Positions 2,115-31,267 of a stretch of DNA of 32,000 nucleotides are shown here, in pieces (the first letter of the stretch is position 1; every line of letters begins with the position of its first letter). The stretch is taken from contig CP006915.1 of NCBI GenBank assembly GCA_000503915.1, forward strand, positions 300,001-332,000, given 5' to 3'. The notes under the pieces were generated by a model. That model was given only the letters and a program-made list of their open reading frames with translations. It searched no databases and had not been told where the DNA came from. This stretch comes from Candidatus Saccharimonadota bacterium. Lineage in GTDB: Bacteria; Patescibacteriota; Saccharimonadia; Saccharimonadales; Saccharimonadaceae. The translations under genes were made by a program, and so were the position numbers.

Positions 2115-2204
<90 letters not shown>

Positions 2205-2208
2205 AATT

Positions 2209-2235
2209 AAAACCCGACCATGTGGTCGGGTTTTT
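2209..2235. terminator. Bidirectional terminator after tRNA-Ser(TGA) / pilin paralog 3
   Basis: Hairpin cccgacc-atgt-ggtcggg with a flanking A-run and a T5 run. Confidence 0.8.
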
Positions 2236-2250
2236 ATTTACCGTGAAAAA

Positions 2251-2658
2251 CTAAACGCTCGTGCCGCTACCGGCGCCACCCGTGAAGCTATCGAGTACGA
2301 AATTGACGATCGCGTAGGCCAAGAGGGCGATAATCACGCCGACGATTGCGTAGAGGATGGTGTTTTTGGCTGCAGTCACCGCTGTTGAGCTACCGCCAGA
2401 GATGACGTAGCGCAGGCCGCCGATGATGATCATGATAACCGATACGGCGCCGAGTACGAAGAGAAGGACGTTAGTAATCGTCCGGAAAATACCGGTTTGA
2501 CCAAAGAGATCAGTAGTTTGACTATTGCCGCGTGCCGCTTCTGCGCCGCCCTGAATAGTACCGTCAAATGCACCTACCATCGGTGCTGCGTAGATGGCGA
2601 GCACCAACGCTGCCGTGAGAAATGAAGGTAAAACTGTCCGAATCATTGTTTTGGTCAT
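2251..2658 (-). CDS. T4SS-pilin-like (TrbC/VirB2-type) protein, paralog 3, with signal peptide
   Basis: The internal ATG at 2658 has AAAGGAAAA upstream. N-terminus MTKTMIRTVLPSFLTAALVLAIYAAPMVGA. The conserved core reads LFGQTGIFRTITNVLLFVLGAVSVIMIIIGGLRYV...AAKNTILYAIVGVIIALLAYAIVNFVLDSF. Confidence 0.75.
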   Translation of the reverse strand: MTKTMIRTVLPSFLTAALVLAIYAAPMVGAFDGTIQGGAEAARGNSQTTDLFGQTGIFRTITNVLLFVLGAVSVIMIIIGGLRYVISGGSSTAVTAAKNTILYAIVGVIIALLAYAIVNFVLDSFTGGAGSGTSV

Positions 2659-2732
2659 GTATTTTCCTTTGTTTAATTCTATTTCCACTATAACAAAATG
2701 CTTCAAATAGTCTACTCGTCGCCCCTGTTTCG

Positions 2733-2741
2733 TGGTACAAT
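2733..2741 (+). promoter_or_regulatory. Extended -10 promoter (TGgTACAAT) heading the repeat array upstream of tRNA-Ser(GCT)
   Basis: TGgTACAAT read directly. The same nonamer precedes the tRNA-Ser(GGA) locus at 26040-26048. Confidence 0.5.
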
Positions 2742-2751
2742 TGTCCAAGTT

Positions 2752-3029
2752 GAGGGAGTGCCCCCAAGTGGCTGCTGCGTGAAACGCAAATTATGGACGG
2801 AAACCGTCCCCTTCAGTCCTTACGGAGTAGAAAGGTTTGAGGATTACGCAGGAGCTACGTGGTGTACGAAGCTTTACAATACGTGGAACGCCCAAGTGGC
2901 TGCTGCGTGAAACGCAAATTATGGACGGAAACCGTCCCTTTCAGCCTCGCTGTAAAGAAAATTTGGGTATCAGGCAGGAGTTACGTGGAATGCGTATCTC
3001 TAAAATATGGAGGAGTACCCAAGTGGCTG
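2752..3029 (+). repeat. Tandem ~127-128-nt repeat (2 full units plus the start of the tRNA), each unit carrying a tRNA-Ser(GCT) D-arm fragment
   Basis: The 48-nt block cccaagtggctgctgcgtgaaacgcaaattatggacggaaaccgtccc at 2763-2810 is repeated identically at 2891-2938. Its first 12 nt (cccaagtggctg) equal tRNA positions 3018-3029. A second conserved block, gcaggag(c/t)tacgtgg, lies at 2848-2862 and 2974-2988. Each unit is preceded by a -10-like box: TACAAT at 2736-2741, TACAAT at 2875-2880 and TAAAAT at 3001-3006. Confidence 0.85.
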
Positions 3030-3101
3030 AAGGGGACGGTTTGCTAAATCGTTAGTGTGGGGAGACCTGCAGCGGGAGTTCGAATCTCCCCTCCTCCGCC
3101 A
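3009..3101 (+). tRNA. tRNA-Ser(GCT), class II, CCA encoded
   Basis: Acceptor ggaggag/ctcctcc, anticodon stem acggt/atcgt with loop uuGCUaa, long variable arm, T-arm gggag-ttcgaat-ctccc, then gcca. Confidence 0.9.
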
Positions 3102-3109
3102 GGAGAGGA

Positions 3110-3138
3110 AGACCATATCTGAAGGATATGGTCTTTTT
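3110..3138 (+). terminator. Rho-independent terminator right after tRNA-Ser(GCT)
   Basis: 10-bp hairpin agaccatatc-tgaag-gatatggtct followed by tttt. Confidence 0.75.
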
Positions 3139-3169
3139 CTTCTGATGAAGAAAGGAAATTCGAACGGTC

Positions 3170-3225
3170 GAGTTCGGGCGAAGCGTTCGAGGCTATTGCC
3201 GAGAACCATCTCCCCTCCTCCGCCA
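3170..3225 (+). repeat. Interrupted partial copy of the tRNA-Ser(GCT) 3' end
   Basis: gagttcg (3170-3176) equals tRNA 3076-3082. After a 31-nt unrelated insert, atctcccctcctccgcca (3208-3225) is 18/18 identical to tRNA 3084-3101. Confidence 0.85.
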
Positions 3226-3380
3226 GAATGAAAAACGCTCGACCAAATGGCCGGGCTTTTTTCATACGCCGCAGGCGGCGGAATTCAAACTCCGCGCTGA
3301 TTTTGTTCGCCGTAGCTCACAAAACGCGGGAGTGGTGCTCGCGTTGCTCGCACCTCCGTTCGACTAAAGCCTCACTCCGA

Positions 3381-3394
3381 CGAATCTCCCCCAG
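3381..3394 (+). repeat. Second, shorter tRNA-Ser(GCT) T-loop/3' fragment
   Basis: cgaatctcccc (3381-3391) equals tRNA 3081-3091 and is followed by cca. The region 3278-3295 also holds a T-arm-like hairpin, gcgga-attcaaac-tccgc, and 3314-3324 holds a D-arm-like gccgtagctca. Confidence 0.5.
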
Positions 3395-3410
3395 TGGTAT
3401 AATTGAGTCA

Positions 3411-3767
3411 ATGAAACTCTATCTTAGTCACGCAAGCAATTTTGATTACCAAACGGAGCTTTATAAGCCGCTAAAAGCAGCTTTTATGGGTAAGTACGAA
3501 ATATACTTCCCGCACGATGTTGAAAACAACGGTCAAAATTCGAAAGATATCATCGCCACATGTGATTTAGTCATCGCCGAGGTGTCTCGGCCATCAACCG
3601 GACAGGGAATCGAGTTGGGCTGGGCGAATGCCGCGGGCGTGCCTATAATTTGTTTCCATCAAGAAAACATGAAGCCATCGGGTGCGGTAAAGTACGTCGC
3701 CAAGGCAATGTTTTCGTACACTACGACCGATAGTCTGGTTAACGAGCTACCTAAGTATCTGGAGTAA
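3411..3767 (+). CDS. Nucleoside 2-deoxyribosyltransferase-like superfamily protein (118 aa)
   Basis: The motif DLVIAEVSRPSTGQGIELGWANAAGVPIICF matches the family signature (acidic residue, small residues, then the E-[IL]-G-x-A catalytic Glu region). TGgTATAAT at 3395-3403 ends 7 nt before the ATG at 3411. The upstream part of the track ORF (3228-3410) crosses tRNA fragments and is unlikely to be coding. Confidence 0.55.
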   Translation: MKLYLSHASNFDYQTELYKPLKAAFMGKYEIYFPHDVENNGQNSKDIIATCDLVIAEVSRPSTGQGIELGWANAAGVPIICFHQENMKPSGAVKYVAKAMFSYTTTDSLVNELPKYLE

Positions 3768-3880
3768 CGAGTCTCCTTTCCTAACATTGCTCATGTTATA
3801 TCTATGATATAGCACTTCGACGGTTTGATTTTTTAGGCTAGCTTTCAAAACGCTCACGCTCCTCATGCTATACTAATCCT

Positions 3881-4408
3881 ATGCAACCAGTGTCGTCAGA
3901 TCAGTCAGCGGCTACACCACAAGCACCCGTATCGCCTTCTCGGGCAGATGACGGGGCGGTTCAGTGGCAAGCACCTGAGTATTTGCAGCGTGCTCGCACG
4001 CCGCTTTGGTACGTTAGCTTTTGGGCGGCGGTAATAGTTCTGATGGGCATCGCTGCTTTTCTGATAAAATCGTGGTCGTTCGTCATCCTGGTACCGGTCA
4101 TGGCCGCCGCACTGGTAATCTACTCACACCGGCCGCCTCGTCAGCTGAATTACGTCTTGAGCGCTAAAGGACTATATATCAACGACCAGCTCCACCCCCT
4201 GAGTGAATTCCGCAGTTTTGGCGTCATGCAGGAGGAGAGCTGGCCTGCACTGGTATTTATACCGGTCAAACGGTTCCGCCCTGGGCTTACCGTCTATTTC
4301 CCGTCGGAAAATGGTGAGGCTATCGTCGATATTCTCGGTGCGCGTATCCCGATGGAGGAGCTTCACCTCGATGCCTTCGACAAAATTGTTCGCAAGCTTC
4401 GTATGTAG
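3881..4408 (+). CDS. Hypothetical membrane protein (two TM helices, then a soluble C-terminal domain)
   Basis: 175-aa ORF with hydrophobic segments WYVSFWAAVIVLMGIAAFLI and SFVILVPVMAAALVIY. TGcTATACT (3866-3874) ends 6 nt before the ATG. Confidence 0.6.
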   Translation: MQPVSSDQSAATPQAPVSPSRADDGAVQWQAPEYLQRARTPLWYVSFWAAVIVLMGIAAFLIKSWSFVILVPVMAAALVIYSHRPPRQLNYVLSAKGLYINDQLHPLSEFRSFGVMQEESWPALVFIPVKRFRPGLTVYFPSENGEAIVDILGARIPMEELHLDAFDKIVRKLRM

Positions 4409-4520
4409 CTTGCTCGAATTACCCCTGTTATGCTACAATAGCTTTCGTCTGTCGCGTGTTGCGCGGAAGCACCTTATAGTTACAAAACGACGGCACAGAA
4501 TTTATTCCGTGCCCGAGTGA

Positions 4521-4597
4521 GCACCCGTAGCTCAGCTGGATAGAGCGTTGGCTTGCGGAGCCAAAGGTCATAGGTTCGAATCCTGTCGGGTGTACCA
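4521..4597 (+). tRNA. tRNA-Arg(GCG), CCA encoded
   Basis: Acceptor gcacccg/cgggtgt (G1-U72 wobble), D-arm gctc-agctggata-gagc, anticodon stem ttggc/gccaa with loop uuGCGga, T-arm atagg-ttcgaat-cctgt, then acca. A TGcTACAAT box lies at 4430-4438. Confidence 0.85.
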
Positions 4598-4599
4598 AG

Positions 4600-4631
4600 A
4601 AAAATAACTCATCTTTCGGTGAGTTATTTTT
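4600..4631. terminator. Bidirectional terminator
   Basis: 12-bp hairpin aaaaataactca-tctttcgg-tgagttattttt. The A and T tracts are part of the stem. Confidence 0.8.
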
Positions 4632-4651
4632 CTTGTCGGTTTATTTTTAAG

Positions 4652-4978
4652 CTAAATGCTCTGTTGTGTGGCTGACGATGACTCGTAGTGGTCATACATC
4701 GGCATTGGGTGTATATAGTCGTAGGAGTTGCTCGTCGTGGAAATGAGGATGACAAAGAGGACGAACAGAATCAGCAGTAATGCTAGGATAACGGACAGGC
4801 TACCGAGAATAATGCCGGCGATGCCGAGACCGCGATTGGTCGGGTTTTTTAGCGAAAGAGTGCCTAAAATGATGGCGGGAATGCCGGTCAGCGGACCGGG
4901 ACCGGCAAATGAGACGATACCGAGCACCAGGGCGGCAATTGCCAAGTTGTTTTCCTTCTTTGTCTCGACTTGTTTCAT
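4652..4978 (-). CDS. DUF4190-like small membrane protein
   Basis: Gly-rich TM repeats LAIAALVLGIVSFAGPGPLTGIPAIILGTLSL and GLGIAGIILGSLSVILALLLILFVLFVIL. The ATG at 4978 (MKQVETKK) has TATACT ending 6 nt upstream. The 5002 start is an alternative. Confidence 0.65.
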   Translation of the reverse strand: MKQVETKKENNLAIAALVLGIVSFAGPGPLTGIPAIILGTLSLKNPTNRGLGIAGIILGSLSVILALLLILFVLFVILISTTSNSYDYIHPMPMYDHYESSSATQQSI

Positions 4979-5028
4979 ATCACCAGTATACGCCATTCTC
5001 ATGGTAAAATACTAGAGATCAACTACCC

Positions 5029-5150
<122 letters not shown>

Positions 5151-12692: not shown

Positions 12693-13769
12693 ATGAACCA
12701 TACGTTAGTAGGGAAGATGACCGCCCGCGCGGCGGCGATGCGATACCGACACCCTGGTCGTGACCTGCGGATTATTGCGGTAGCCGGCGCGTACGGCAAG
12801 ACGACAACATCGCTACTACTCGGGGGGATACTGCAAGAGGCCAAAGTACCGGTTGTTACCATGACGAGTCAAGGTTGCTATTTCAACGGCCAGCCGCTGC
12901 CACTGCGCTATGATGGAGGCGCACAAAGTTTGCAGCACGCCCTCGCCAAGGCAAAGCAGAAAAAAGCCGATGTCGTTATTGTTGAACTGAGCGAGCGGCT
13001 ACTGGAAAGCCACGTGCTGGCCACTGTTCCGATCGAGATGGCGATCGTTACTAGTGATGACCCGACCGCCCAAGCCTTGTTGCGCCAGCCAGCTAACTAT
13101 GCCGTATTACCAAGCGGCTTTGAGGTGGATGGCTTGAGTGTTGCACCGCATCAGGCAATCAGTTTTGGCACGGATGATCTCGCGGAAGCAAAGATTGCCA
13201 CCACGCGGCTGCTGCGCGGCGGTACCGAGATAGAGCTTGTAATCGATCATCAGACAAAGCTCGAGCTGGCGACGTATCTGGTTGGAAAAGCCAATGTCAT
13301 GAATATTGCTGCTGCCGTAGCCGGTGCGTACGTACTGGCGGCGGACATCGAGACGTTTCAGGAAGGTATCGCCAAGCTCGAGAAAGTGCGCGGCAATTTC
13401 GAAAAGGTTGCGGCCGACAGACCCTACGTTATCTATAGCGATCATGCGGTGCACGCTACCTCTGTGGAGCTGGCACTTGCCTCGGCTCATGAGCTTGCTA
13501 AACGGCGTTTATTGGTCGCGCTTGACGGTTCGGTTGAGCTTGGTAGTTTTGAAACAGTTAAGTCGCTGAGTGACCGGTTGGTTTTGGTGGGTGAAGAACG
13601 GGAAGAGCGCGGTGTCGAAAGCGTAGCGACCGCCGGTGAAGCGCTCGAAGTGATCTTTCGTGCTGCTAAAAAGGATGACTTTGTCTTACTGCTCGGCGCG
13701 GAGTTTACGAAGACGGATGACAGCGGCCAAAGTCTTGTCGAGCGAATGATTGAAGGTACCGGTGAGTAA
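12693..13769 (+). CDS. Mur-ligase-family paralog with degenerate catalytic motifs
   Basis: P-loop VAGAYGKTTT is present. ELSER and VTSDDPTAQ occupy the positions of the usual E-x-S-S-H and T-N-x-x-x-D-H-L-D motifs. TAAAAT ends 8 nt before the ATG. Confidence 0.65.
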   Translation: MNHTLVGKMTARAAAMRYRHPGRDLRIIAVAGAYGKTTTSLLLGGILQEAKVPVVTMTSQGCYFNGQPLPLRYDGGAQSLQHALAKAKQKKADVVIVELSERLLESHVLATVPIEMAIVTSDDPTAQALLRQPANYAVLPSGFEVDGLSVAPHQAISFGTDDLAEAKIATTRLLRGGTEIELVIDHQTKLELATYLVGKANVMNIAAAVAGAYVLAADIETFQEGIAKLEKVRGNFEKVAADRPYVIYSDHAVHATSVELALASAHELAKRRLLVALDGSVELGSFETVKSLSDRLVLVGEEREERGVESVATAGEALEVIFRAAKKDDFVLLLGAEFTKTDDSGQSLVERMIEGTGE

Positions 13770-23954: not shown

Positions 23955-25187
23955 TTAATGATAGCGTCGGAGCGATTCGATTGGGTCTTTGCGAGCGGCG
24001 CGGATGGCCGGATAGAGTCCAAAGACCAAGCCGACACCAATCGAAAGCAGGCTGGCGTAGCCGACGATATCCCAACCAAGTGCCGGGTCGTACGGAATAA
24101 ACATACTGACGACGAAAGCAACAAAGTAGCCACCGATAAAGCCGAGTAGGCCGCCCAGAGTACTGATGATGAGTGCCTCGATCAGGAATTGCCAGATGAT
24201 TGTGGCATTGCTGGCGCCAACAGCTTTTCGAAGGCCGATTTCGCGCGTCCGCTCTGAGACGCCGACCAGCATGATGTTCATAATACCGATACCGCCGACT
24301 AGCAGAGAAATACCCGCAATGACCGCCATGACCGCACTGATGAAGAGAAAGAGATGGCTGGTCGGCCTGGCGATTTCCTTGCCGGTATAAACTTTGGCTT
24401 CGGGTTGCTGGTCGTGATTTTCTTTTAGCTCTTTATCGATGCTAGTTGCGAAAGCTTTCATGTTGGTGCCGGCTTTGGCAGCGACATTGATCTGTTGGAT
24501 TTGCGCCATGCCGCCATTAAATAGCTTGCCGCTCTCCAGGCTAATGATAGCTGTATTGTCGAAGTCAACGTTATTGTAGTTGATCGGCTTGTTCTCACGC
24601 TTTAGGACGCCGATAACCGTAAAATCCTGGCCGCGTATCAGAAACTTTCGGCCGATCGACTGCTCGGTGCCAAAAAGATCTACCGAAAGTTGCGAGCCAA
24701 TCACGGCAGTATCTTGGGTGGTGACACTATCGATAAACTGGCCGTCCTCGATGGTAATGCCGCCGATTGTTTCAAAGGCCGGCGTGGTGGCAAGTAACGT
24801 CGCGTTTTTTGCCAGGCTGTCACGTGTACGGATACTGCCGCTGAGTGTCATCAGCGGTGCAACGTTCTGGGTGGAAGGTAGGCTGCCGATATTCTCGACG
24901 TCACGCTCGGTTAAGGGGCTGGTCGTGTAAGCATTTTGTGGTGTCGGGTTACTCAGGTCGGACAGGCTGAGTTCTGGCGTCGTGGGGCGTACGATGGCGA
25001 TATTGCCGCCGAGCTCCTCGATCTGCTGTGTGATGACGCGCGTAACGCCGCTGGACAAGGCGAGAATGGTGGTGATGCTGGCGACACCGATGGCAACGCC
25101 GCTGATGGTCAGCAGCGTGCGGAGCCGTGCTCGCTCAAGCGACTGACGAGCTGTGCGGTAGTGGTCACCCAGGAGTAAGTTGGTCAT
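23955..25187 (-). CDS. ABC transporter permease, MacB/FtsX family
   Basis: 410 aa. N-terminal TM, large periplasmic-type domain, and a C-terminal FtsX-like 3-TM bundle (GIGIMNIMLVGVSERTREIGLRKAVGA). ATGA overlap with the upstream ATPase gene. Confidence 0.85.
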   Translation of the reverse strand: MTNLLLGDHYRTARQSLERARLRTLLTISGVAIGVASITTILALSSGVTRVITQQIEELGGNIAIVRPTTPELSLSDLSNPTPQNAYTTSPLTERDVENIGSLPSTQNVAPLMTLSGSIRTRDSLAKNATLLATTPAFETIGGITIEDGQFIDSVTTQDTAVIGSQLSVDLFGTEQSIGRKFLIRGQDFTVIGVLKRENKPINYNNVDFDNTAIISLESGKLFNGGMAQIQQINVAAKAGTNMKAFATSIDKELKENHDQQPEAKVYTGKEIARPTSHLFLFISAVMAVIAGISLLVGGIGIMNIMLVGVSERTREIGLRKAVGASNATIIWQFLIEALIISTLGGLLGFIGGYFVAFVVSMFIPYDPALGWDIVGYASLLSIGVGLVFGLYPAIRAARKDPIESLRRYH

Positions 25188-25975
25188 CTCTTTGCCTTTC
25201 GCTTTGGTTTCTTTTTGGTTTTTACAGCGCGGCTGTCGAGCGGCACTTTAGTATGGACACGCTCCAGTATACGTTCATCTTGAGTGTCGGTATCGATGCG
25301 GCCATCGAGCATGGTGATGACGCGCGTGGCATAGGTTGTAAGGTTGGGGTTGTGTGTCACCATGATGATCGTGTTACCCTTTTTGTGAACTTCAGAGAGC
25401 TCTTCCATGATGACATGGCTGGAGCGTGAGTCGAGATTGCCGGTCGGCTCGTCGGCGAGAATGATGCTAGGGTTGCTCACGAGAGCGCGGGCAATAGCAA
25501 CACGCTGCGTCTGGCCGCCACTCAGCTGCCATGGCATATAATATTCTCGTTCCTGCAGATGGAAAGTACTGAGGGCTTTACTCGCTAGCTGCAAGCGCTT
25601 TGTGTGGTGGACGCCGCTATAGGTGAGGGGAAGCGCCACATTTTCGAGGACGTTTAGTCGCTCGATCAGGTTGAAGCTTTGAAAGATGAAACCAATTTGG
25701 CGAGCACGTATACGCGCCTGTTCGCCGCCACGGATGTCCTCGACATTTTTACCATCGAGTAGATATTCACCGTCGGTTGATCGATCGAGCATGCCGATGA
25801 TATTGAGTAGGGTCGTCTTGCCGCAGCCGCTCGGACCCATAATAGCGATAAATTCTCCCCTATTCACCGTGAGATCTACCCCATCGAGCGCGTAATTTTC
25901 GGCGTCGCCAATCCCAAACCGCTTTTTCAGGCCCTTGAGTTTGACGACTGGTGTACTCACAGTGGGTCGTTTCAT
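25184..25975 (-). CDS. ABC transporter ATP-binding protein (MacB/LolD type)
   Basis: Walker [10 protein letters not shown], signature LSGGQTQR, Walker B ILADEPT. Start MKRPTVS at 25975, with TATAAT (complement of 25983-25988) ending 7 nt upstream. The longer track ORF to 26302 runs through a tRNA gene. Confidence 0.9.
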
Positions 25976-26039
25976 CTGTTCTATTATAGAAATCGCAGTG
26001 AGGTAAAAGCAACCAAAAGCAGGCCGTATTTTTGACAAC

Positions 26040-26048
26040 TGGTACAAT
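26040..26048 (+). promoter_or_regulatory. Extended -10 promoter (TGgTACAAT) upstream of the tRNA-Ser(GGA) locus
   Basis: Read directly. The predicted transcription start lies about 5 nt before the 5' tRNA fragment at 26060. Confidence 0.5.
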
Positions 26049-26059
26049 AGAGTACGCGG

Positions 26060-26072
26060 GGAGAGGTGGCCG
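26060..26072 (+). repeat. 5' fragment copy of tRNA-Ser(GGA)
   Basis: ggagaggtggccg is 13/13 identical to tRNA 26197-26209, then diverges. It can fold back on cctctc at 26085-26090. Confidence 0.7.
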
Positions 26073-26196
26073 TGAAGCGAAGTGCCTCTCGCAGACAATC
26101 TTGATTGTCGAGAAAGGTACGAGCGGATATAGTGAGGATGTGCCAGCGGCACACCGGAACGCTGTGGATACGAGGCCATCGATCCGAGCGAAGTAA

Positions 26197-26286
26197 GGAG
26201 AGGTGGCCGAGTGGTTGAAGGCGCACGCTTGGAAAGCGTGTATACGTGCAAACGTATCGCAGGTTCGAATCCTGTTCTCTCCGCCA
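26197..26286 (+). tRNA. tRNA-Ser(GGA), class II, CCA encoded
   Basis: Acceptor ggagagg/tctctcc, anticodon stem cacgc/gcgtg with loop uuGGAaa, long variable arm, T-arm cagg-ttcgaat-cctg, then gcca. Confidence 0.9.
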
Positions 26287-26295
26287 GGAGAGGCG

Positions 26296-26322
26296 AGCTC
26301 ATTCTTTATGAATGGGCTTGTT
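26296..26322 (+). terminator. Hairpin/terminator right after tRNA-Ser(GGA)
   Basis: 9-bp hairpin agctcattc-tttat-gaatgggct (one G-U pair), followed by tgtt. Confidence 0.5.
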
Positions 26323-27050: not shown

Positions 27051-27159
27051 AGCCAATATTTATAACCGCTACATATAGCGTTGTAAAAAAGCAACACTAC
27101 GCTACAAGAGGTAGTGTAAGCAAAAGCGCCATGTGGTGAAAAAAACGTTAGGAAAAGAC

Positions 27160-27214
27160 TTGCACTGGCTATATATAGGGTCTATAGTCGTATGCAGACC
27201 ACTACATATGTAGT
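27160..27214 (+). promoter_or_regulatory. Candidate nrdA promoter with two AT-rich palindromes (NrdR-box-like)
   Basis: TTGCAC (27160-27165), 17 nt, TATAGT (27183-27188). The palindrome CTATATATAG (27169-27178) lies in the spacer. The palindrome ACTACATATGTAGT (27201-27214) lies just downstream of the predicted transcription start. The first equals the core of the published NrdR-box consensus acaCwAtATaTwGtgt. Confidence 0.45.
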
Positions 27215-27367
27215 CGTTCAATAAAATACACAGTAATGCAAATCACACCTAGAGTGACCTGGCATCCGCTGGATGTGTGTTTTTGCGTTTTGCCCGATAA
27301 TGAGCAGGAGGTGTCTCATCGTCGATGGGTACTGTGGCAAACATAAAATAATCATATAGGGGAAATC

Positions 27368-29827
27368 ATGAACGGAATTCATGTGGTAAAGCGAGATGGC
27401 ACCCGCGAACCATTTGACGCCAACAAGATTAACCTGGCGCTGGTGAAAGCAAGTGAGGGCTTACCGGACCAGATATCTAAAGTAGTGCAGGTAGCGACCG
27501 AGCTCCAACTGACACTCTTTGATGGCATCACATCTGAGCAGCTTGACGAAGCAGTAATCCATACGGCACTGCAGAACGTCAAAGACGATCCAGACTTTGA
27601 CAAAGTCGCAGCGAGGCTGCTGCTCAAGAACATCTACAAGAACATCCTGGGTGATTTCGAAACCGACGCGCAACTAAAGAAACTTCACGCCAGCGCGTTT
27701 CCTAAATATATCAAGGACGCCGTTAAAAACGGTCTGCTAGACGAGCGCATGGGCGACGGCCGTTTCGACCTTAAGAGACTGGCAGCTGCACTCGAGCCTG
27801 CGCACGACGAACTCTTTAAATATATCGGTGTGGTAACCAATAAAAACCGCTACGCCCTGCGTAAAAACAGCGGCGCACCGATCGAAACACCACAGTTTAC
27901 CCACATGCGTATCGCTATGGGGCTTTCCTACAATGAAAAAGACCCGACCCAGGCAGCACTTGATTTCTACGAACACATGAGCCGACTCGAGTACGTCCCG
28001 GGCGGTTCGACTCGCGTGAACGCCGGTGGCGCTTTCCCGCAGCTTTCCAACTGCTTCCTGATGGAAGTACAAGACGACATGGAGTCGATCGCCAAGAGTA
28101 TTCGCGACACGATGTGGATCGCCAAAGGTACCGGTGGTATCGGCATTACCATGACCAAGCTTCGTGCGGCCGGCAGTCCGGTAAAGACGACCAACACTGA
28201 AAGTACCGGACCAATTCCATTTATGAAGATGATCGACACGGCACTCTTTGCCGTATCGCGAAAAGGCAAGAAAGCCGGCGCCGCGGCCATGTACATGGAG
28301 AACTGGCACCTCAACTTCCCGCAATTTCTCGACCTGCGTGTCAACTCTGGTGACCCATACCTCAGAACCCGTATCATGAACACGGCAGTTTATCTGAGCG
28401 ATGAATTCATGAACCGTGTCCAAAAAGGCCAAGACTGGTACTTGTTTGACCCGGCCGAAGTGGAAGACTTACCGGAACTCTACGGCGCTGATTTTAGTAA
28501 GCGTTACAACGAGTACGTCAAATTGGCGGAAAAAGGTGAGATTCGCGAATTTTCTAAAGTTCCCGCTCGCCAGCAGTTCAAGCAGATCTTGACGACGCTA
28601 CAGGCGACCGGACACCCGTGGCTGACGTGGAAGGACACTATCAACGTCCGTGCGCTCAACAACAACACCGGTACGATTCATTGTTCAAACCTCTGTACCG
28701 AGATTACTTTGCCGCAGGATGAAAAGAACGTGTCGGTCTGTAACCTGATTTCGATCAACTTGTCACGTCACCTGACGGAAGACAAGACGTGGGAATGGGA
28801 TAAGCTAGAAAAAAGTGTCCGCTCGGCTGTTCGCCAGCTCGACAACCTCTGTGACATTACCAACACGCCGATTCCAGAAGCGATGCATTCCAACCTGCAG
28901 AACCGTGCGATCGGCCTTGGCCTGATGGGCTTTACCGACGTAATCGAGAAATTGAGCCACAGCTACGAGTCTGAAGAGGCATATGACCTGATCGACCAGC
29001 TGGTGGAATTTATCAGCTACTACGCAATCGACGAATCAGCCGAGCTTGCCAAGCTTCGGGGCAGTTACCCACAATTTAAGGGCAGCGGCTGGAGCCAGGG
29101 CTTATTGCCGATTGACACTGTCGATGAACTCGGCAAGTCGCGTAAGCTCAAAGTGAACGTCAACAAAAAGACCCGTCTCGATTGGGAAGTCTTGCGTAAA
29201 AAAGCCACCAAGGGCATGCGCAACGCAACCTTGATGGCTATCGCACCGACCGCCAACATTGGCCTGATTGCTGGCACAACCCCTGGTCTTGACCCGCAGT
29301 TTGCGCAGATCTTCTCGCGTAGCACGCTGAGTGGTAAGTTCCTCGAAGTGAACCAAAATCTTGTTCGTGACTTAAAAGAGCTGGACCTTTGGGATCAAGT
29401 CAAAAACGAAGTGCTGGCTCGCCAAGGCGATATCCAGGATATCGAGGCAATCCCGCAGCACATCAAAGATGTCTACAAAACCAGTTTCCAGCTTAGTCCG
29501 TACGCTTTCATCGAAGTCGCGGCGCGCGCTCAGAAGTGGGTTGACCAAGCAATTTCTCGCAATATGTACCTTGAGACTCGCAACATCGATGACTACGTCG
29601 ATATTTACAGCGAAGCATGGAAGCGCGGCCTGAAGACTACCTACTACTGCCACGTCAAACCGCGTCACCAGGCTGAGCAAAGTACCACTCACGTCAACAA
29701 AACCGAAGAGCTAGCTAAAAAGAGCGGTGGCGCTCGTAAGTCAGGCTTCGGCTTCGCGAAAAAACAAACAACAGGGGTCCCCGAGAAACTTGTTTCACGG
29801 GGTATAGAAACGGAGGCAGGGGTATGA
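27368..29827 (+). CDS. nrdA: Ribonucleoside-diphosphate reductase alpha subunit (class I), one ATP-cone
   Basis: ATP-cone VVKRDGTREPFDANKI. Active-site motifs LSNCFL, CSNLCTEI and VCNLISINL. The TTYY pair lies near the C-terminus. AGGGGAAATC Shine-Dalgarno. No Cys occurs in the last ~58 aa of the annotated frame. Confidence 0.95.
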   Translation: MNGIHVVKRDGTREPFDANKINLALVKASEGLPDQISKVVQVATELQLTLFDGITSEQLDEAVIHTALQNVKDDPDFDKVAARLLLKNIYKNILGDFETDAQLKKLHASAFPKYIKDAVKNGLLDERMGDGRFDLKRLAAALEPAHDELFKYIGVVTNKNRYALRKNSGAPIETPQFTHMRIAMGLSYNEKDPTQAALDFYEHMSRLEYVPGGSTRVNAGGAFPQLSNCFLMEVQDDMESIAKSIRDTMWIAKGTGGIGITMTKLRAAGSPVKTTNTESTGPIPFMKMIDTALFAVSRKGKKAGAAAMYMENWHLNFPQFLDLRVNSGDPYLRTRIMNTAVYLSDEFMNRVQKGQDWYLFDPAEVEDLPELYGADFSKRYNEYVKLAEKGEIREFSKVPARQQFKQILTTLQATGHPWLTWKDTINVRALNNNTGTIHCSNLCTEITLPQDEKNVSVCNLISINLSRHLTEDKTWEWDKLEKSVRSAVRQLDNLCDITNTPIPEAMHSNLQNRAIGLGLMGFTDVIEKLSHSYESEEAYDLIDQLVEFISYYAIDESAELAKLRGSYPQFKGSGWSQGLLPIDTVDELGKSRKLKVNVNKKTRLDWEVLRKKATKGMRNATLMAIAPTANIGLIAGTTPGLDPQFAQIFSRSTLSGKFLEVNQNLVRDLKELDLWDQVKNEVLARQGDIQDIEAIPQHIKDVYKTSFQLSPYAFIEVAARAQKWVDQAISRNMYLETRNIDDYVDIYSEAWKRGLKTTYYCHVKPRHQAEQSTTHVNKTEELAKKSGGARKSGFGFAKKQTTGVPEKLVSRGIETEAGV

Positions 29828-29859
29828 ACCAGTGTATCTGCGGCTGTAGCTGCTGCTAA
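29824..29859 (+). CDS. Candidate 11-aa Cys-rich micro-ORF overlapping the nrdA stop (ATGA)
   Basis: atg aac cag tgt atc tgc ggc tgt agc tgc tgc taa translates to MNQCICGCSCC. Its ATG overlaps the nrdA TGA. The same (-1) frame is open back to 29740. Confidence 0.3.
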   Translation: MNQCICGCSCC

Positions 29860-29900
29860 AAACAAGAGCGAAAAAAAGTAACAAAATAGGGGAAACAACG

Positions 29901-30074
29901 ATGAACGCAAACGCAATCCTAACCGATGAGATGACACTGGAAGAAAAACTGGCCGCTATCGACCAAGCGATGGCCAATGCCCAGGCACAGGCCAACGAAG
30001 AGGCCGCAGCGAACGGCCAGATGGCCGCACCGCTAGACCCAGCAAGTCTAACGATCTGTGATGGGTGTGAGTGA
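29901..30074 (+). CDS. Candidate 57-aa protein ending in a CxxC motif
   Basis: AGGGGAAACAACG-ATG has the same Shine-Dalgarno type as nrdA. Sequence MNANAILTDEMTLEEKLAAIDQAMANAQAQANEEAAANGQMAAPLDPASLTICDGCE. It is below the ORF-track size cut-off. Confidence 0.45.
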   Translation: MNANAILTDEMTLEEKLAAIDQAMANAQAQANEEAAANGQMAAPLDPASLTICDGCE

Positions 30075-30175
30075 TGGGCGAGCAGCTATCGATTCGCGAA
30101 ATTGATGAACAACTGAAACAGTTCCTCGACGAACCGCTTGCAGAGATTGCACTTGCGGGAACCGTCGAACTGTAA
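30074..30175 (+). CDS. Candidate 33-aa acidic protein, translationally coupled (TGATG overlap)
   Basis: MGEQLSIREIDEQLKQFLDEPLAEIALAGTVEL. Its ATG overlaps the stop codon of the 57-aa ORF. Confidence 0.35.
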   Translation: MGEQLSIREIDEQLKQFLDEPLAEIALAGTVEL

Positions 30176-30205: not shown

Positions 30206-31267
30206 ATGTCAGGAATATTAGGTACCGGTATCCAGGACGGGCTGCTCTTAAAGCCGGTTCATTACCCGTGGGCAATGGAACTCTACGATCAGGCGGTCGC
30301 TAATACGTGGTTTCCAAATGAGATTCAGCTCGGTCAGGATCTTTCCGACTGGAAAAAGATGACCGATGAGGAGCGCCATGCACTGACCTACCTCATGAGC
30401 TACTTCAACCCGAACGAGCTGCTGGTCAATAAAGCTTTGGCCTTTGGCGTCTACCCTTACGTCAATGCTGCTGAGTGTCATCTCTATCTTGCGAAACAGA
30501 TGTGGGAAGAAGCCAATCACTGTATGAGCTTCGAGTACGTGCTCGAAACTTTCCCAATCGACCGCGACCAGGCCTACGCCGGCCATGTCGAAGTCGACAG
30601 CATGCGCATCAAGGAAGAGTTTGAGACAAAGTATATCAAGCGCATGACCGAAGACACGCTTGATATTACGACGACCGAGGGTAAAAAAGACTTTGTACGC
30701 AATCTCATCGCTTACAATATCATCCTTGAGGGTATCTGGTTCTACAGTGGCTTTATGGTGGCGCTTTCTTTCCGCCAGCGCAACCTGATGCGTAACTTCG
30801 GCAGCCTCATGGACTGGATTATTCGTGACGAGAGCCTCCACCTCAAGTTTGGCATCAACCTCATCCTGACTGTGCTGGAGGAAAACGAGGATCTACAGAC
30901 CGAGGAGTTTGCAAATGAAATCAAGCAAATGATCCTCGACGCTGTCGATATGGAAGAGCAGTACAACAAAGACCTACTGCCAAAGGGTATCCTCGGCCTG
31001 AACGCTGACTACGTCAACCAGTACGTCAAGTATCTGACTGACCGCCGTCTCGAAGAACTTGGCTTTGAACCACACTACAAGGTATCAAACCCCGCTAAGT
31101 GGATGGCCGCTGCCAACGACACGCTCGAGCTGGTCAACTTCTTTGAAAGTACCAACACCAGCTACGAAGTGAATGCAGGTAACAGCGCTTCAGCGATGAA
31201 GGGCGGCAAAAGCCCTAGCGCCGATCGCGGTGAAAATAACCCCGACGAGAGCATTCTCGATAAATAA
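30206..31267 (+). CDS. nrdB: Ribonucleotide reductase beta subunit, class Ic-type (R2c-like)
   Basis: Metal ligands read as E71, E102, H105, E175, E209, H212, with Phe109 at the radical-Tyr position. The spacing is identical to the Chlamydia trachomatis R2c pattern (E89, E120, H123, F127, E193, E227, H230). AAAGGAGGTG Shine-Dalgarno. Confidence 0.9.
   Translation: MSGILGTGIQDGLLLKPVHYPWAMELYDQAVANTWFPNEIQLGQDLSDWKKMTDEERHALTYLMSYFNPNELLVNKALAFGVYPYVNAAECHLYLAKQMWEEANHCMSFEYVLETFPIDRDQAYAGHVEVDSMRIKEEFETKYIKRMTEDTLDITTTEGKKDFVRNLIAYNIILEGIWFYSGFMVALSFRQRNLMRNFGSLMDWIIRDESLHLKFGINLILTVLEENEDLQTEEFANEIKQMILDAVDMEEQYNKDLLPKGILGLNADYVNQYVKYLTDRRLEELGFEPHYKVSNPAKWMAAANDTLELVNFFESTNTSYEVNAGNSASAMKGGKSPSADRGENNPDESILDK

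Follow-up and report, generated by a model that had tools for sequence, protein, structure and literature searches.

Organization of the nrd locus

We examined a 32,000-nucleotide (nt) stretch of a Saccharibacteria (TM7) chromosome, referred to here as the window, which carries one nrd operon encoding a class I ribonucleotide reductase (RNR). Our subjects are the alpha subunit of this enzyme, NrdA, whose chain ends without a C-terminal redox cysteine pair, and two small genes that follow it: a Cys-rich micro-open reading frame (micro-ORF) at the nrdA stop codon, and a gene for a protein of 57 amino acids (aa) that ends in a CxxC motif. The predicted operon order is nrdA, the micro-ORF, the 57-aa gene, a third small ORF and nrdB (Table 1). 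Because no terminator on the + strand was found between nrdA and nrdB, the region is read as one operon. The operon is surrounded by common housekeeping genes (ValRS, TsaD, Mur ligases, FemAB, GroES/EL, PGI and an ABC transporter), and a megablast search of the operon against phage genomes gave no match. The nearest NrdA homologues and 80 related genomic loci all belong to Saccharibacteria metagenome-assembled genomes. Gene structures, conservation, synteny, motif identity and the pattern of selection, as described below, were read directly from the sequences.

Table 1. Features of the nrd locus, with positions in the window.
Feature	Position	Strand	Basis
nrdA, class I RNR alpha subunit, 819 aa	27368..29827	+	Pfam domains; alignment to P. 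aeruginosa NrdA 5im3
GFGFAKK, conserved Cys-less C-terminal motif of Saccharibacteria NrdA	29744..29764	+	GFGF-like motif near the end in 78/80 species-level loci; 120 homologues inspected
Strain-specific 39-nt in-frame insertion, codons GVPEKLVSRGIET	29774..29812	+	missing from the otherwise identical contig L081
Shine-Dalgarno (SD) sequence GGAGG of the micro-ORF	29812..29816	+	7 nt 5' of its ATG, within the last nrdA codons
Cys-rich micro-ORF, MNQCICGCSCC and stop	29824..29859	+	start overlaps the nrdA stop (ATGA)
SD-like AGGGGA of the 57-aa gene	29888..29893	+	G-rich SD upstream of orthologue ATGs
57-aa protein MNANAILTDEMTLEEKLAAIDQAMANAQAQANEEAAANGQMAAPLDPASLTICDGCE, proposed detached NrdA redox tail	29901..30074	+	N-terminal amphipathic helix, variable linker, invariant C-terminal CxxC-x
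C-terminal motif LDPASLTICDGCE of the 57-aa protein (Cys53, Cys56)	30033..30071	+	invariant columns; match to sister-clade NrdA C-termini
Third small ORF, 33 aa (MGEQLSIREIDEQLKQFLDEPLAEIALAGTVEL; begins MGEQLSIREIDEQL...)	30074..30175	+	start overlaps the stop of the 57-aa gene (TGATG)
nrdB, R2c-like (class Ic) beta subunit, Phe at the radical-Tyr position	30206..31267	+	Pfam; best PDB match C. trachomatis R2c (1SYY), E 2e-70

NrdA keeps its active site and lacks the C-terminal cysteine pair

The Pfam search identified the ATP-cone, all-alpha and ten-stranded barrel domains in NrdA (PF03477, PF00317 and PF02867, with E from 5e-19 down to 1e-164), the ATP-cone being single. The closest solved structure is the NrdA of Pseudomonas aeruginosa (5im3, E 2e-188). 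In the alignment with that protein, NrdA of the window has the N-x-C-x-E catalytic Cys motif (C443/E445), the active-site redox Cys pair (C229 and C458) and the YY dyad (Y759-Y760), and these residues, which include the equivalents of C225, C439/E441 and C462, are invariant in 58 homologues. Since the active-site Cys residues are kept, NrdA is expected to form a disulfide in each turnover, and this disulfide has to be re-reduced.

All class I RNRs are stated to carry a C-terminal redox-active Cys pair (PMC6187632), for which CXXC is the class I consensus according to Burnim et al. NrdA of the window ends in ...TTYYCHVKPRHQAEQSTTHVNKTEELAKKSGGARKSGFGFAKKQTTGVPEKLVSRGIETEAGV and has neither a CxxC nor a Cx4C pair; the sole Cys after TTYY is the residue directly after YY. 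The missing pair and the ATGA overlap of the nrdA stop with a reading frame for MNQCICGCSCC had been pointed out in the original prediction, and both the coordinates and the translation confirm them. The prediction proposed that NrdA C-termini be aligned to see which frame is conserved. We made this comparison in two sets drawn from independent assemblies, the 120 closest homologues and 80 species-level Saccharibacteria loci, and the conserved frame is the Cys-less frame 0. Its tail, TTYY[LC]HVKPRHQAEQSTTKVNK..E.AK.SGG.RK.GFGFAKK..., is kept free of Cys in 120/120 closest homologues, and 79 of the 80 species-level loci have zero Cys past YY+1.

The end of the chain follows the consensus G-F-G-F-[AS]-[KR]-[KR] in 78/80 Saccharibacteria loci, whereas the sister-clade NrdAs are without this motif. 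As far as ...AEQSTTKVNK (compare ...TEKSTINTGKLNAV), Saccharibacteria NrdA can be aligned with the sister clade, and it has the GFGFAKK end thereafter; the sister-clade proteins run on at that point into a linker and a CxxC tail. On these alignments, the loss of the flexible C-terminal CxxC tail appears as a lineage-wide trait of NrdA. The GFGFAKK motif is a possible docking site for a detached tail protein or for a redoxin.

Within this tail, a 39-nt insertion gives NrdA of the window 13 aa more than its nearest relatives have; the boundaries of the insertion are ambiguous by about 3 nt as a result of a flanking short AAC repeat. An imperfect palindrome, CCCCGAGAAAC-tt-GTTTCACGGGG, lies inside the insertion at 29779-29802. 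The insertion is present in the independent assembly P0002 and absent from L081 and P0003-P0005, and no further copies were found in the window, in 170 loci or in viral contigs. The tail stays Cys-free with or without the 39 nt, and the micro-ORF is also unaltered by them.

NrdB resembles class Ic beta subunits

The beta subunit was compared with R2c of Chlamydia trachomatis. In the 1SYY alignment, Phe occupies the position of the radical Tyr in NrdB, and the first metal ligand is Glu rather than Asp: ...EEANHCMSF... of NrdB aligns with ...EEAVHTHTF... of the chlamydial protein, and ...NPNELLV... aligns with ...STAESLV.... The Phe of NrdB is aligned with the chlamydial residue known as F127, and the match at this position suggests that the enzyme is class Ic-like. 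The RNR of Saccharibacteria thus appears to be a class Ic (Mn/Fe-type) enzyme.

The 57-aa protein ends in the motif of an NrdA tail

The ORF that follows the micro-ORF, on which the original prediction had not remarked, lies 74 nt downstream of nrdA and ends in the canonical NrdA tail motif. The 57-aa protein has more than 1,000 homologues, all of about 57 aa and all annotated as "hypothetical". In this family an N-terminal segment, DDMTLEEKLAAID.AM, is conserved, the linker varies in length and sequence, and the end, P.DP..L..C.GC[QE] at the C-terminus, is invariant; the invariant columns are D46, P47, L50, T51, C53, G55 and C56. The AlphaFold2 (AF2) model has a helix at residues 13-37, with a predicted local distance difference test (pLDDT) score of 75-83, and a tail of low confidence. 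Searches with the 57-aa protein against Pfam, NCBIfam and PDB sequences returned only weak matches to designed coiled coils, which can be attributed to its helical heptads. A G-rich SD precedes the ATG in nearly all of about 125 distinct orthologue upstream regions, as judged by eye.

The gene is closely tied to the nrd genes. The order nrdA, small gene, nrdB was found in 75 loci and the order nrdA, nrdB, small gene in 19, and a further 41 loci, too short to show nrdA, have nrdB followed by the small gene. Among the nrdA-centred loci that reach far enough, 76 of 77 contain a member of the family, counting divergent forms that end in ...GDPADAFACEGCQ.

A profile search of 1.84 billion representatives with the 57-aa family gave 120 clusters, of which 118 are standalone proteins of 33-144 aa. 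The CxxC-x end is present in 91/120 clusters, and the others look truncated or frameshifted. The two remaining matches are long, low-complexity and unrelated to NrdA tails, and the search found no long NrdAs with C-termini homologous to the 57-aa protein. Because the profile search yielded standalone small proteins, the link to NrdA tails was made by reading the C-termini of sister-clade NrdAs directly. We used ten such proteins (P. aeruginosa, Acinetobacter, Legionella, Teredinibacter, Azospira, Ralstonia, Phyllobacterium, Halorussus, Acaryochloris and Pseudomonas phage Illi-2), with an identity of 40-45% across the final 230 residues of the barrel.

Each of the ten ends in ...[DN]P.CEACQ (for instance ...DPDCEACQ), ...GDPGFAECESCQ or ...GDPDSDGCQACQ. 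The end is ...ACSIDNPDCEACQ in P. aeruginosa (...SIDNPDCEACQ), ...CSILDPNCEACQ in Legionella, ...VEDPTCEACQ in Halorussus, ...RPGDPDSDGCQACQ in Ralstonia, ...RPGDPGFAECESCQ in phage Illi-2 and ...SPGDANFDDCEACQ in Acaryochloris. Members of the 57-aa family end in ...VDPADLTMCEGCQ, ...DPSDAFACEGCQ, ...RDPSDAFACEGCQ or, as in the window, ...LDPASLTICDGCE. Common to both groups are a low-complexity linker, an acidic-Pro pair, a few residues, C-E/D-x-C-Q/E and then the C-terminus. As a control, we scanned all six frames of 161 loci. Of the 13,893 segments with 30 aa or more, 144 have C[DE].C[QE] at their end, and 143 of these 144 belong to the 57-aa family. The order nrdA and then the small gene is consistent with fission of an ancestral tail in situ, as we infer from the arrangement. 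An artificial fusion of the NrdA C-terminus with the 57-aa protein aligned over the barrel only when it was searched against the PDB.

The only C[DE].C[QE] end outside the family, ...RPPRICDYCQ, lies on the + strand between nrdA and nrdB in locus L054 and could be due to chance or represent a second tail-like ORF.

A cysteine-rich micro-ORF at the nrdA stop codon

The nrdA TGA at 29825-27 is overlapped by an ATG at 29824 (gtATGA), which opens a reading frame of 12 codons, ATG AAC CAG TGT ATC TGC GGC TGT AGC TGC TGC TAA. The encoded peptide has five Cys in 11 aa (positions 4, 6, 8, 10 and 11), and not six as originally counted. The -1 frame is open from 29740, as had been proposed, after a TAA at 29737-39; the upstream part of this frame, given earlier as ...CFHGY, in fact reads ...ETCFTGYRN.... 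From the position of the SD of the micro-ORF, it follows that the final NrdA residues (…EAGV) are encoded by its ribosome-binding site.

Beyond the window, the micro-ORF was found in 19 loci: 8 of the 80 genome loci (L001, L005, L006, L007, L008, L011, L017 and L023), the contig of the near-identical strain L081, which carries the same peptide as the window, and 10 metagenome loci. We tabulated 19 sequences, 17 of them distinct. Every one starts with ATG, stops at TAA or TAG and is preceded, 5-13 nt upstream, by an SD-like purine- or G-rich stretch, which contains GGAG or GAGG in 15/19. The junction with nrdA is ATGA in 13 cases, TAATG in one, TAAATG (frame 0) in one, +14 nt in three and +25 nt (frame +1) in one; relative to nrdA, the frame of the micro-ORF is -1, 0 or +1 and the offset ranges from -1 to +25 nt.

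With a length of 11-26 aa, the micropeptides follow the pattern M..(x)CxCxCxCC(xxCxxC). The short forms are MNQCICGCSCC, MTECTCNCSCC, MTNCTCACNCCK, MTDCTCNCGCSCCK and MNNYHCPCGCNCCT; the long forms, of which MTDNTCTCNCECCKSCDTCNK and MDKKCNCSCECCMNCSECNVNLTDDK are examples, have 7 Cys in 21-26 aa. Besides Cys, the peptides are rich in S, T, N, D, E and K. Their Cys arrays are metallothionein-like (CxC, CC and CxxC), and aromatic residues are absent from the long forms, while the short variant of L099 has Y and H. No match to a curated metallothionein family or to HMA was found in Pfam.

The codons of these sequences indicate selection. Across the 19 micro-ORFs there are 120 Cys codons, 74 TGC and 46 TGT. 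In an alignment of 11 long forms, codon positions 1 and 2 are invariant in the seven Cys columns and position 3 is T/C-variable in 7/7, whereas the 11 non-Cys columns are variable at positions 1, 2 and 3 in 8, 10 and 11 cases, respectively. This variation shows that selection acts on the amino acid and not on the DNA. The micro-ORFs differ by indels whose lengths are divisible by three, and they retain the SD, ATG and stop. ORFs of at most 40 aa with the pattern M-x(0-6)-CxCxC-x(0-3)-CC are present in 18/161 loci, in each case on the + strand and at the nrdA stop, and the 812 kb of six-frame sequence contain no such ORF anywhere else.

Within the window, by itself, the Cys density of the micro-ORF is mildly unusual: six-frame stretches with at least 5 Cys in 11 aa number two, and shuffled sequences averaged 0.28 and never had more than 2. 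It is the conservation at the nrdA stop in 19 further loci that raises the micro-ORF above chance, and we conclude that it is very likely a real peptide gene. On the evidence of the SD and of the variable frame, its translation would proceed by SD-driven initiation or by termination-reinitiation at the nrdA stop, and not by frameshifting.

The second Cys-dense stretch of the window, CHEYCCCRSRC, lies at 13295 (+ frame) within the span of a Mur-ligase gene (12693-13769) and is probably due to chance.

The micro-ORF is limited to the closest clade of the window (NrdA identity of at least about 81%) and is patchy even there. In L002 and L003 the ATGA overlap is kept and the short peptides that it encodes are Cys-free. 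Since the micropeptide is confined to a subclade while Saccharibacteria NrdAs lack the Cys pair in 79/80 loci, it is not a general replacement of the tail. We also considered an amino-acid leader-peptide attenuator and rejected it: the 41-nt A-rich spacer after the micro-ORF contains no attenuator hairpin, and the downstream genes encode RNR and not Cys biosynthesis.

A proposed redox tail in trans

We propose that the operon encodes a class Ic RNR that receives its redox tail in trans from the 57-aa protein, and that the micro-ORF is a separate accessory gene; from the sequence evidence as a whole, we put the probability of this combined explanation at about 0.65. Its central part, that the 57-aa protein supplies the tail of NrdA in trans, we consider likely. 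The active-site Cys pair of NrdA would be oxidised in every turnover, its own re-reducing tail having been lost. The 57-aa protein would anchor on NrdA by its N-terminal amphipathic helix, perhaps near GFGFAKK, and its variable linker would provide the reach. The C-terminal ...DP..L..C-D/E-G-C-E/Q-COOH would then enter the active site, where C53 and C56 would reduce the C229-C458 disulfide, after which the 57-aa protein would itself be re-reduced by a redoxin.

Several observations weigh against this proposal. The link between the 57-aa protein and NrdA tails consists of a terminal motif of 5-12 residues, and neither HMMER profile searches nor PDB searches gave a connection between the two; common descent by gene fission is therefore not proven. 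CxxC is also a common metal-binding motif. In 10 of the 80 loci centred on the small gene, no nrd gene was found within 1.2 kb of it, and the window contains no thioredoxin, glutaredoxin or NrdH gene. The AF2 prediction of NrdA, made with a 58-sequence alignment, was a poor model (mean pLDDT 59), so its low confidence at residues 756-819 is uninformative. Most Saccharibacteria with the same RNR architecture are without the micropeptide, the four micropeptides that we queried have no match in Pfam and NCBIfam at E ≤ 10, and the role of the micropeptide as a thiol- or metal-binding accessory is a guess. The proposed binding and electron transfer, like the function of the micropeptide, are deduced from sequence.

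A more elaborate form of the proposal is a class Ic RNR of three or four components, in which the 57-aa protein is a free and possibly diffusible shuttle and the CxCxCxCC peptide of the subclade, coupled to nrdA in its translation, is an accessory factor, carrying a metal-thiolate or Fe-S centre, that re-reduces the shuttle or supplies an extra electron or the correct metal for assembly of the Mn/Fe cofactor. We regard this elaboration as unlikely, with perhaps one chance in a handful of being right; if it were true, the micropeptide would be among the smallest dedicated enzyme partners known.

A different explanation is that the small proteins handle metals. The 57-aa protein, the micropeptide or both would serve the Mn/Fe cofactor of NrdB, as a metallochaperone or as a mini-metallothionein against mis-metallation, and the tail-less NrdA would receive its electrons straight from a redoxin or small thiol, with no shuttle in between. 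CxxC motifs and CxC/CC arrays are classic metal-binding motifs, an R2c-like NrdB would need correct Mn/Fe loading, and the composition of the micropeptide resembles that of short fungal metallothioneins. Yet the end of the 57-aa protein is near-identical to the redox tail of sister-clade NrdAs, including the one residue that separates the motif from the C-terminus, and its gene co-occurs with the loss of the tail in essentially every locus. Moreover, the Mn and Fe sites of R2 proteins are formed by carboxylates and His, we know of no thiolate chaperone for these sites, and the Pfam search gave no metallothionein or HMA match. Metal handling seems to us a doubtful account of the locus.

The original prediction had also considered that a separately translated, Cys-rich micropeptide acts in trans. 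The first half of this suggestion stands, in that the micro-ORF is a separately translated and independently initiated gene. The second half, that MNQCICGCSCC itself replaces the redox pair of NrdA, draws on its start at the nrdA stop, its vicinal thiols and the purifying selection on its Cys, and it fails on distribution, since the micro-ORF is present in 8/80 loci and the pair is missing from 79/80 NrdAs. The peptides of L002 and L003 are Cys-free despite the ATGA overlap, and the micropeptide has no likeness to NrdA tail motifs, unlike the 57-aa protein. We consider this replacement very unlikely, and as a source of a trans-acting Cys pair the 57-aa protein is, judged by its motif, the far better candidate.

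That the micro-ORF is non-functional, either a chance ORF or a translational-coupling spacer indifferent to its sequence, would agree with a Cys density that is only mildly significant in one window and with a frame that is very short, reported by no gene caller and missing from most relatives. Against this, the 17 distinct sequences keep every Cys, with TGT/TGC changes only, while the other codons diverge at all positions; indels come in threes with the SD, ATG and stop retained, and the micro-ORF is found nowhere but at the nrdA stop. The coincidental overlap that the original prediction had listed is ruled out by this conservation and codon pattern, and we hold the absence of any function to be a highly improbable reading.

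The two remaining suggestions of the original prediction did not survive. A programmed -1 frameshift near the 3' end of nrdA, which would fuse NrdA to the Cys-rich frame, was suggested by the open -1 frame from 29740 and by the A6 run at 29759-64. The run is where it was reported to be, but GCG AAA AAA CAA is not phased as X_XXY_YYZ, and in L004, L005 and L011 the A stretch is interrupted, so that no phased heptamer is conserved. The proposed search for a stimulatory RNA structure was also negative, as folding of 29755-29905 gave z = -1.07 and Rfam had no match there. Relatives have the micro-ORF in frame 0, in frame +1 or past the nrdA stop with intervening stops (L005, L008, L096, L128 and L131), and it always has its own ATG and SD-like stretch, which makes the frameshift hardly credible. 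A sequencing or assembly indel that hides a conventional Cys-bearing tail, for which the homopolymer runs (the A6 run and the G4 runs at 29774-77 and 29799-802, correctly located) and the 39-nt indel polymorphism could be cited, can be dismissed with near certainty, given that the frame-0 tail is kept across hundreds of independent assemblies, that the 39-nt indel is in frame with both alleles Cys-free, and that no frame of the region contains a CxxC-x tail except the separate downstream gene.

Relation to known reductases and metallothioneins

The closest precedent that we found is the class II RNR NrdJa/NrdJb of P. aeruginosa and other gamma-Proteobacteria, in which the catalytic chain is likewise without C-terminal Cys and an adjacent gene encodes them. 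NrdJb has thiol-disulfide exchange in trans to NrdJa as its main role, binds near the NrdJa C-terminus and is essential in vivo (PMC4520616; PMC5704485), and inter-subunit electron transfer is documented for class II RNR (PMC5704485). The enzyme of the window differs in being a class I RNR with NrdB and not a B12-dependent class II enzyme. NrdJb is a folded six-Cys Zn domain, whereas the 57-aa protein has two Cys, a helix and a flexible tail, and it has no sequence similarity to NrdJb and no domain match. A function of the NrdJa/NrdJb type is thus assigned here by analogy from sequence. With that qualification, the locus would extend the principle of a split redox module from class II to class I.

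Compared with the canonical NrdAz-type tail of P. aeruginosa, the 57-aa protein has the same terminal motif and a variable-length low-complexity linker before it, but it is a separate polypeptide with a conserved N-terminal helix (MTLEEKLAAID.AM), and NrdA of Saccharibacteria ends in GFGFAKK. The lineage therefore appears to break the stated rule of a Cys pair on every class I alpha subunit. The class Ic RNR of C. trachomatis resembles the present enzyme in the Phe and the first-ligand Glu of NrdB, and NrdA falls in the same broad clade as the NrdAs of P. aeruginosa and Chlamydia; the single ATP-cone, the tail-less NrdA and the extra small operon genes distinguish it from the chlamydial RNR, and the class Ic likeness is one of sequence.

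A class I alpha subunit in two pieces is described for Aeromonas phage Aeh1, whose NrdA is split by a homing endonuclease gene into two pieces that reassemble (PMC3045599). In that case a mobile element split the catalytic core, whereas in the window the tail alone is separate and there is no mobile gene. For a split class I tail or for Saccharibacteria RNR, nothing specific was found in the literature, of which our coverage was incomplete.

For the micropeptide, short metallothioneins offer a parallel in composition, the 26-aa copper metallothionein of Neurospora crassa being such a protein. The micropeptides, with 11-26 aa and 4-7 Cys in CxC/CC/CxxC arrays, are similar in this respect; they differ in being fixed at the nrdA stop and in having no match in Pfam or NCBIfam.

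If the trans-acting tail is confirmed, it would provide a natural two-part system for the study of how the tail docks and reaches the active site, and it would give a function to the 57-aa family, with its more than 1,000 unannotated members. The micro-ORF is conserved yet below the length that gene callers detect, and only its overlap with a stop codon brought it to light. More generally, essential motifs that are missing from the reduced genomes of the candidate phyla radiation may hide in neighbouring small ORFs.

Other features of the locus

The third small ORF has counterparts with similar N-termini in L010 and L038. In other loci the same slot is occupied by ORFs of 96-144 aa (L001, L006 and L007) or by a coiled-coil protein of 86-91 aa (L058, L061, L062, L072 and L080), and the spacer between nrdA and nrdB looks like a hotspot for small genes.

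Upstream of nrdA, a leader of about 580 nt that is free of ORFs contains three AT-rich palindromes, GCTACATATAGC at 27068-27079, GGCTATATATAGGG at 27167-27180 and CACTACATATGTAGTC at 27200-27215. The last two are about 34 bp apart from centre to centre and resemble NrdR boxes by eye. A sigma-70-like promoter match (TAGTCA-17-TATAAT with TG) was found in the segment 26813-26882 of the window, about 480 nt upstream of nrdA, and a strong terminator-like hairpin, AAACAGCTCCCCGACTGGGGGCTGTTT, with a T-run follows within 15 nt. This promoter-hairpin pair could be the source of a tiny transcript or a bidirectional terminator.

The window has four tRNA-Ser (tga, gct, cga and gga) and a tRNA-Arg, the listed spans being 2115-5117, 26197-26286 and 28288-28383. 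Within nrdA, ARAGORN also calls a minus-strand tRNA-Ser(aga), which is probably a false positive. Since the ORF 25184-26302 overlaps at its 5' end with the tRNA at 26197-26286, the ABC-transporter gene must start further in.

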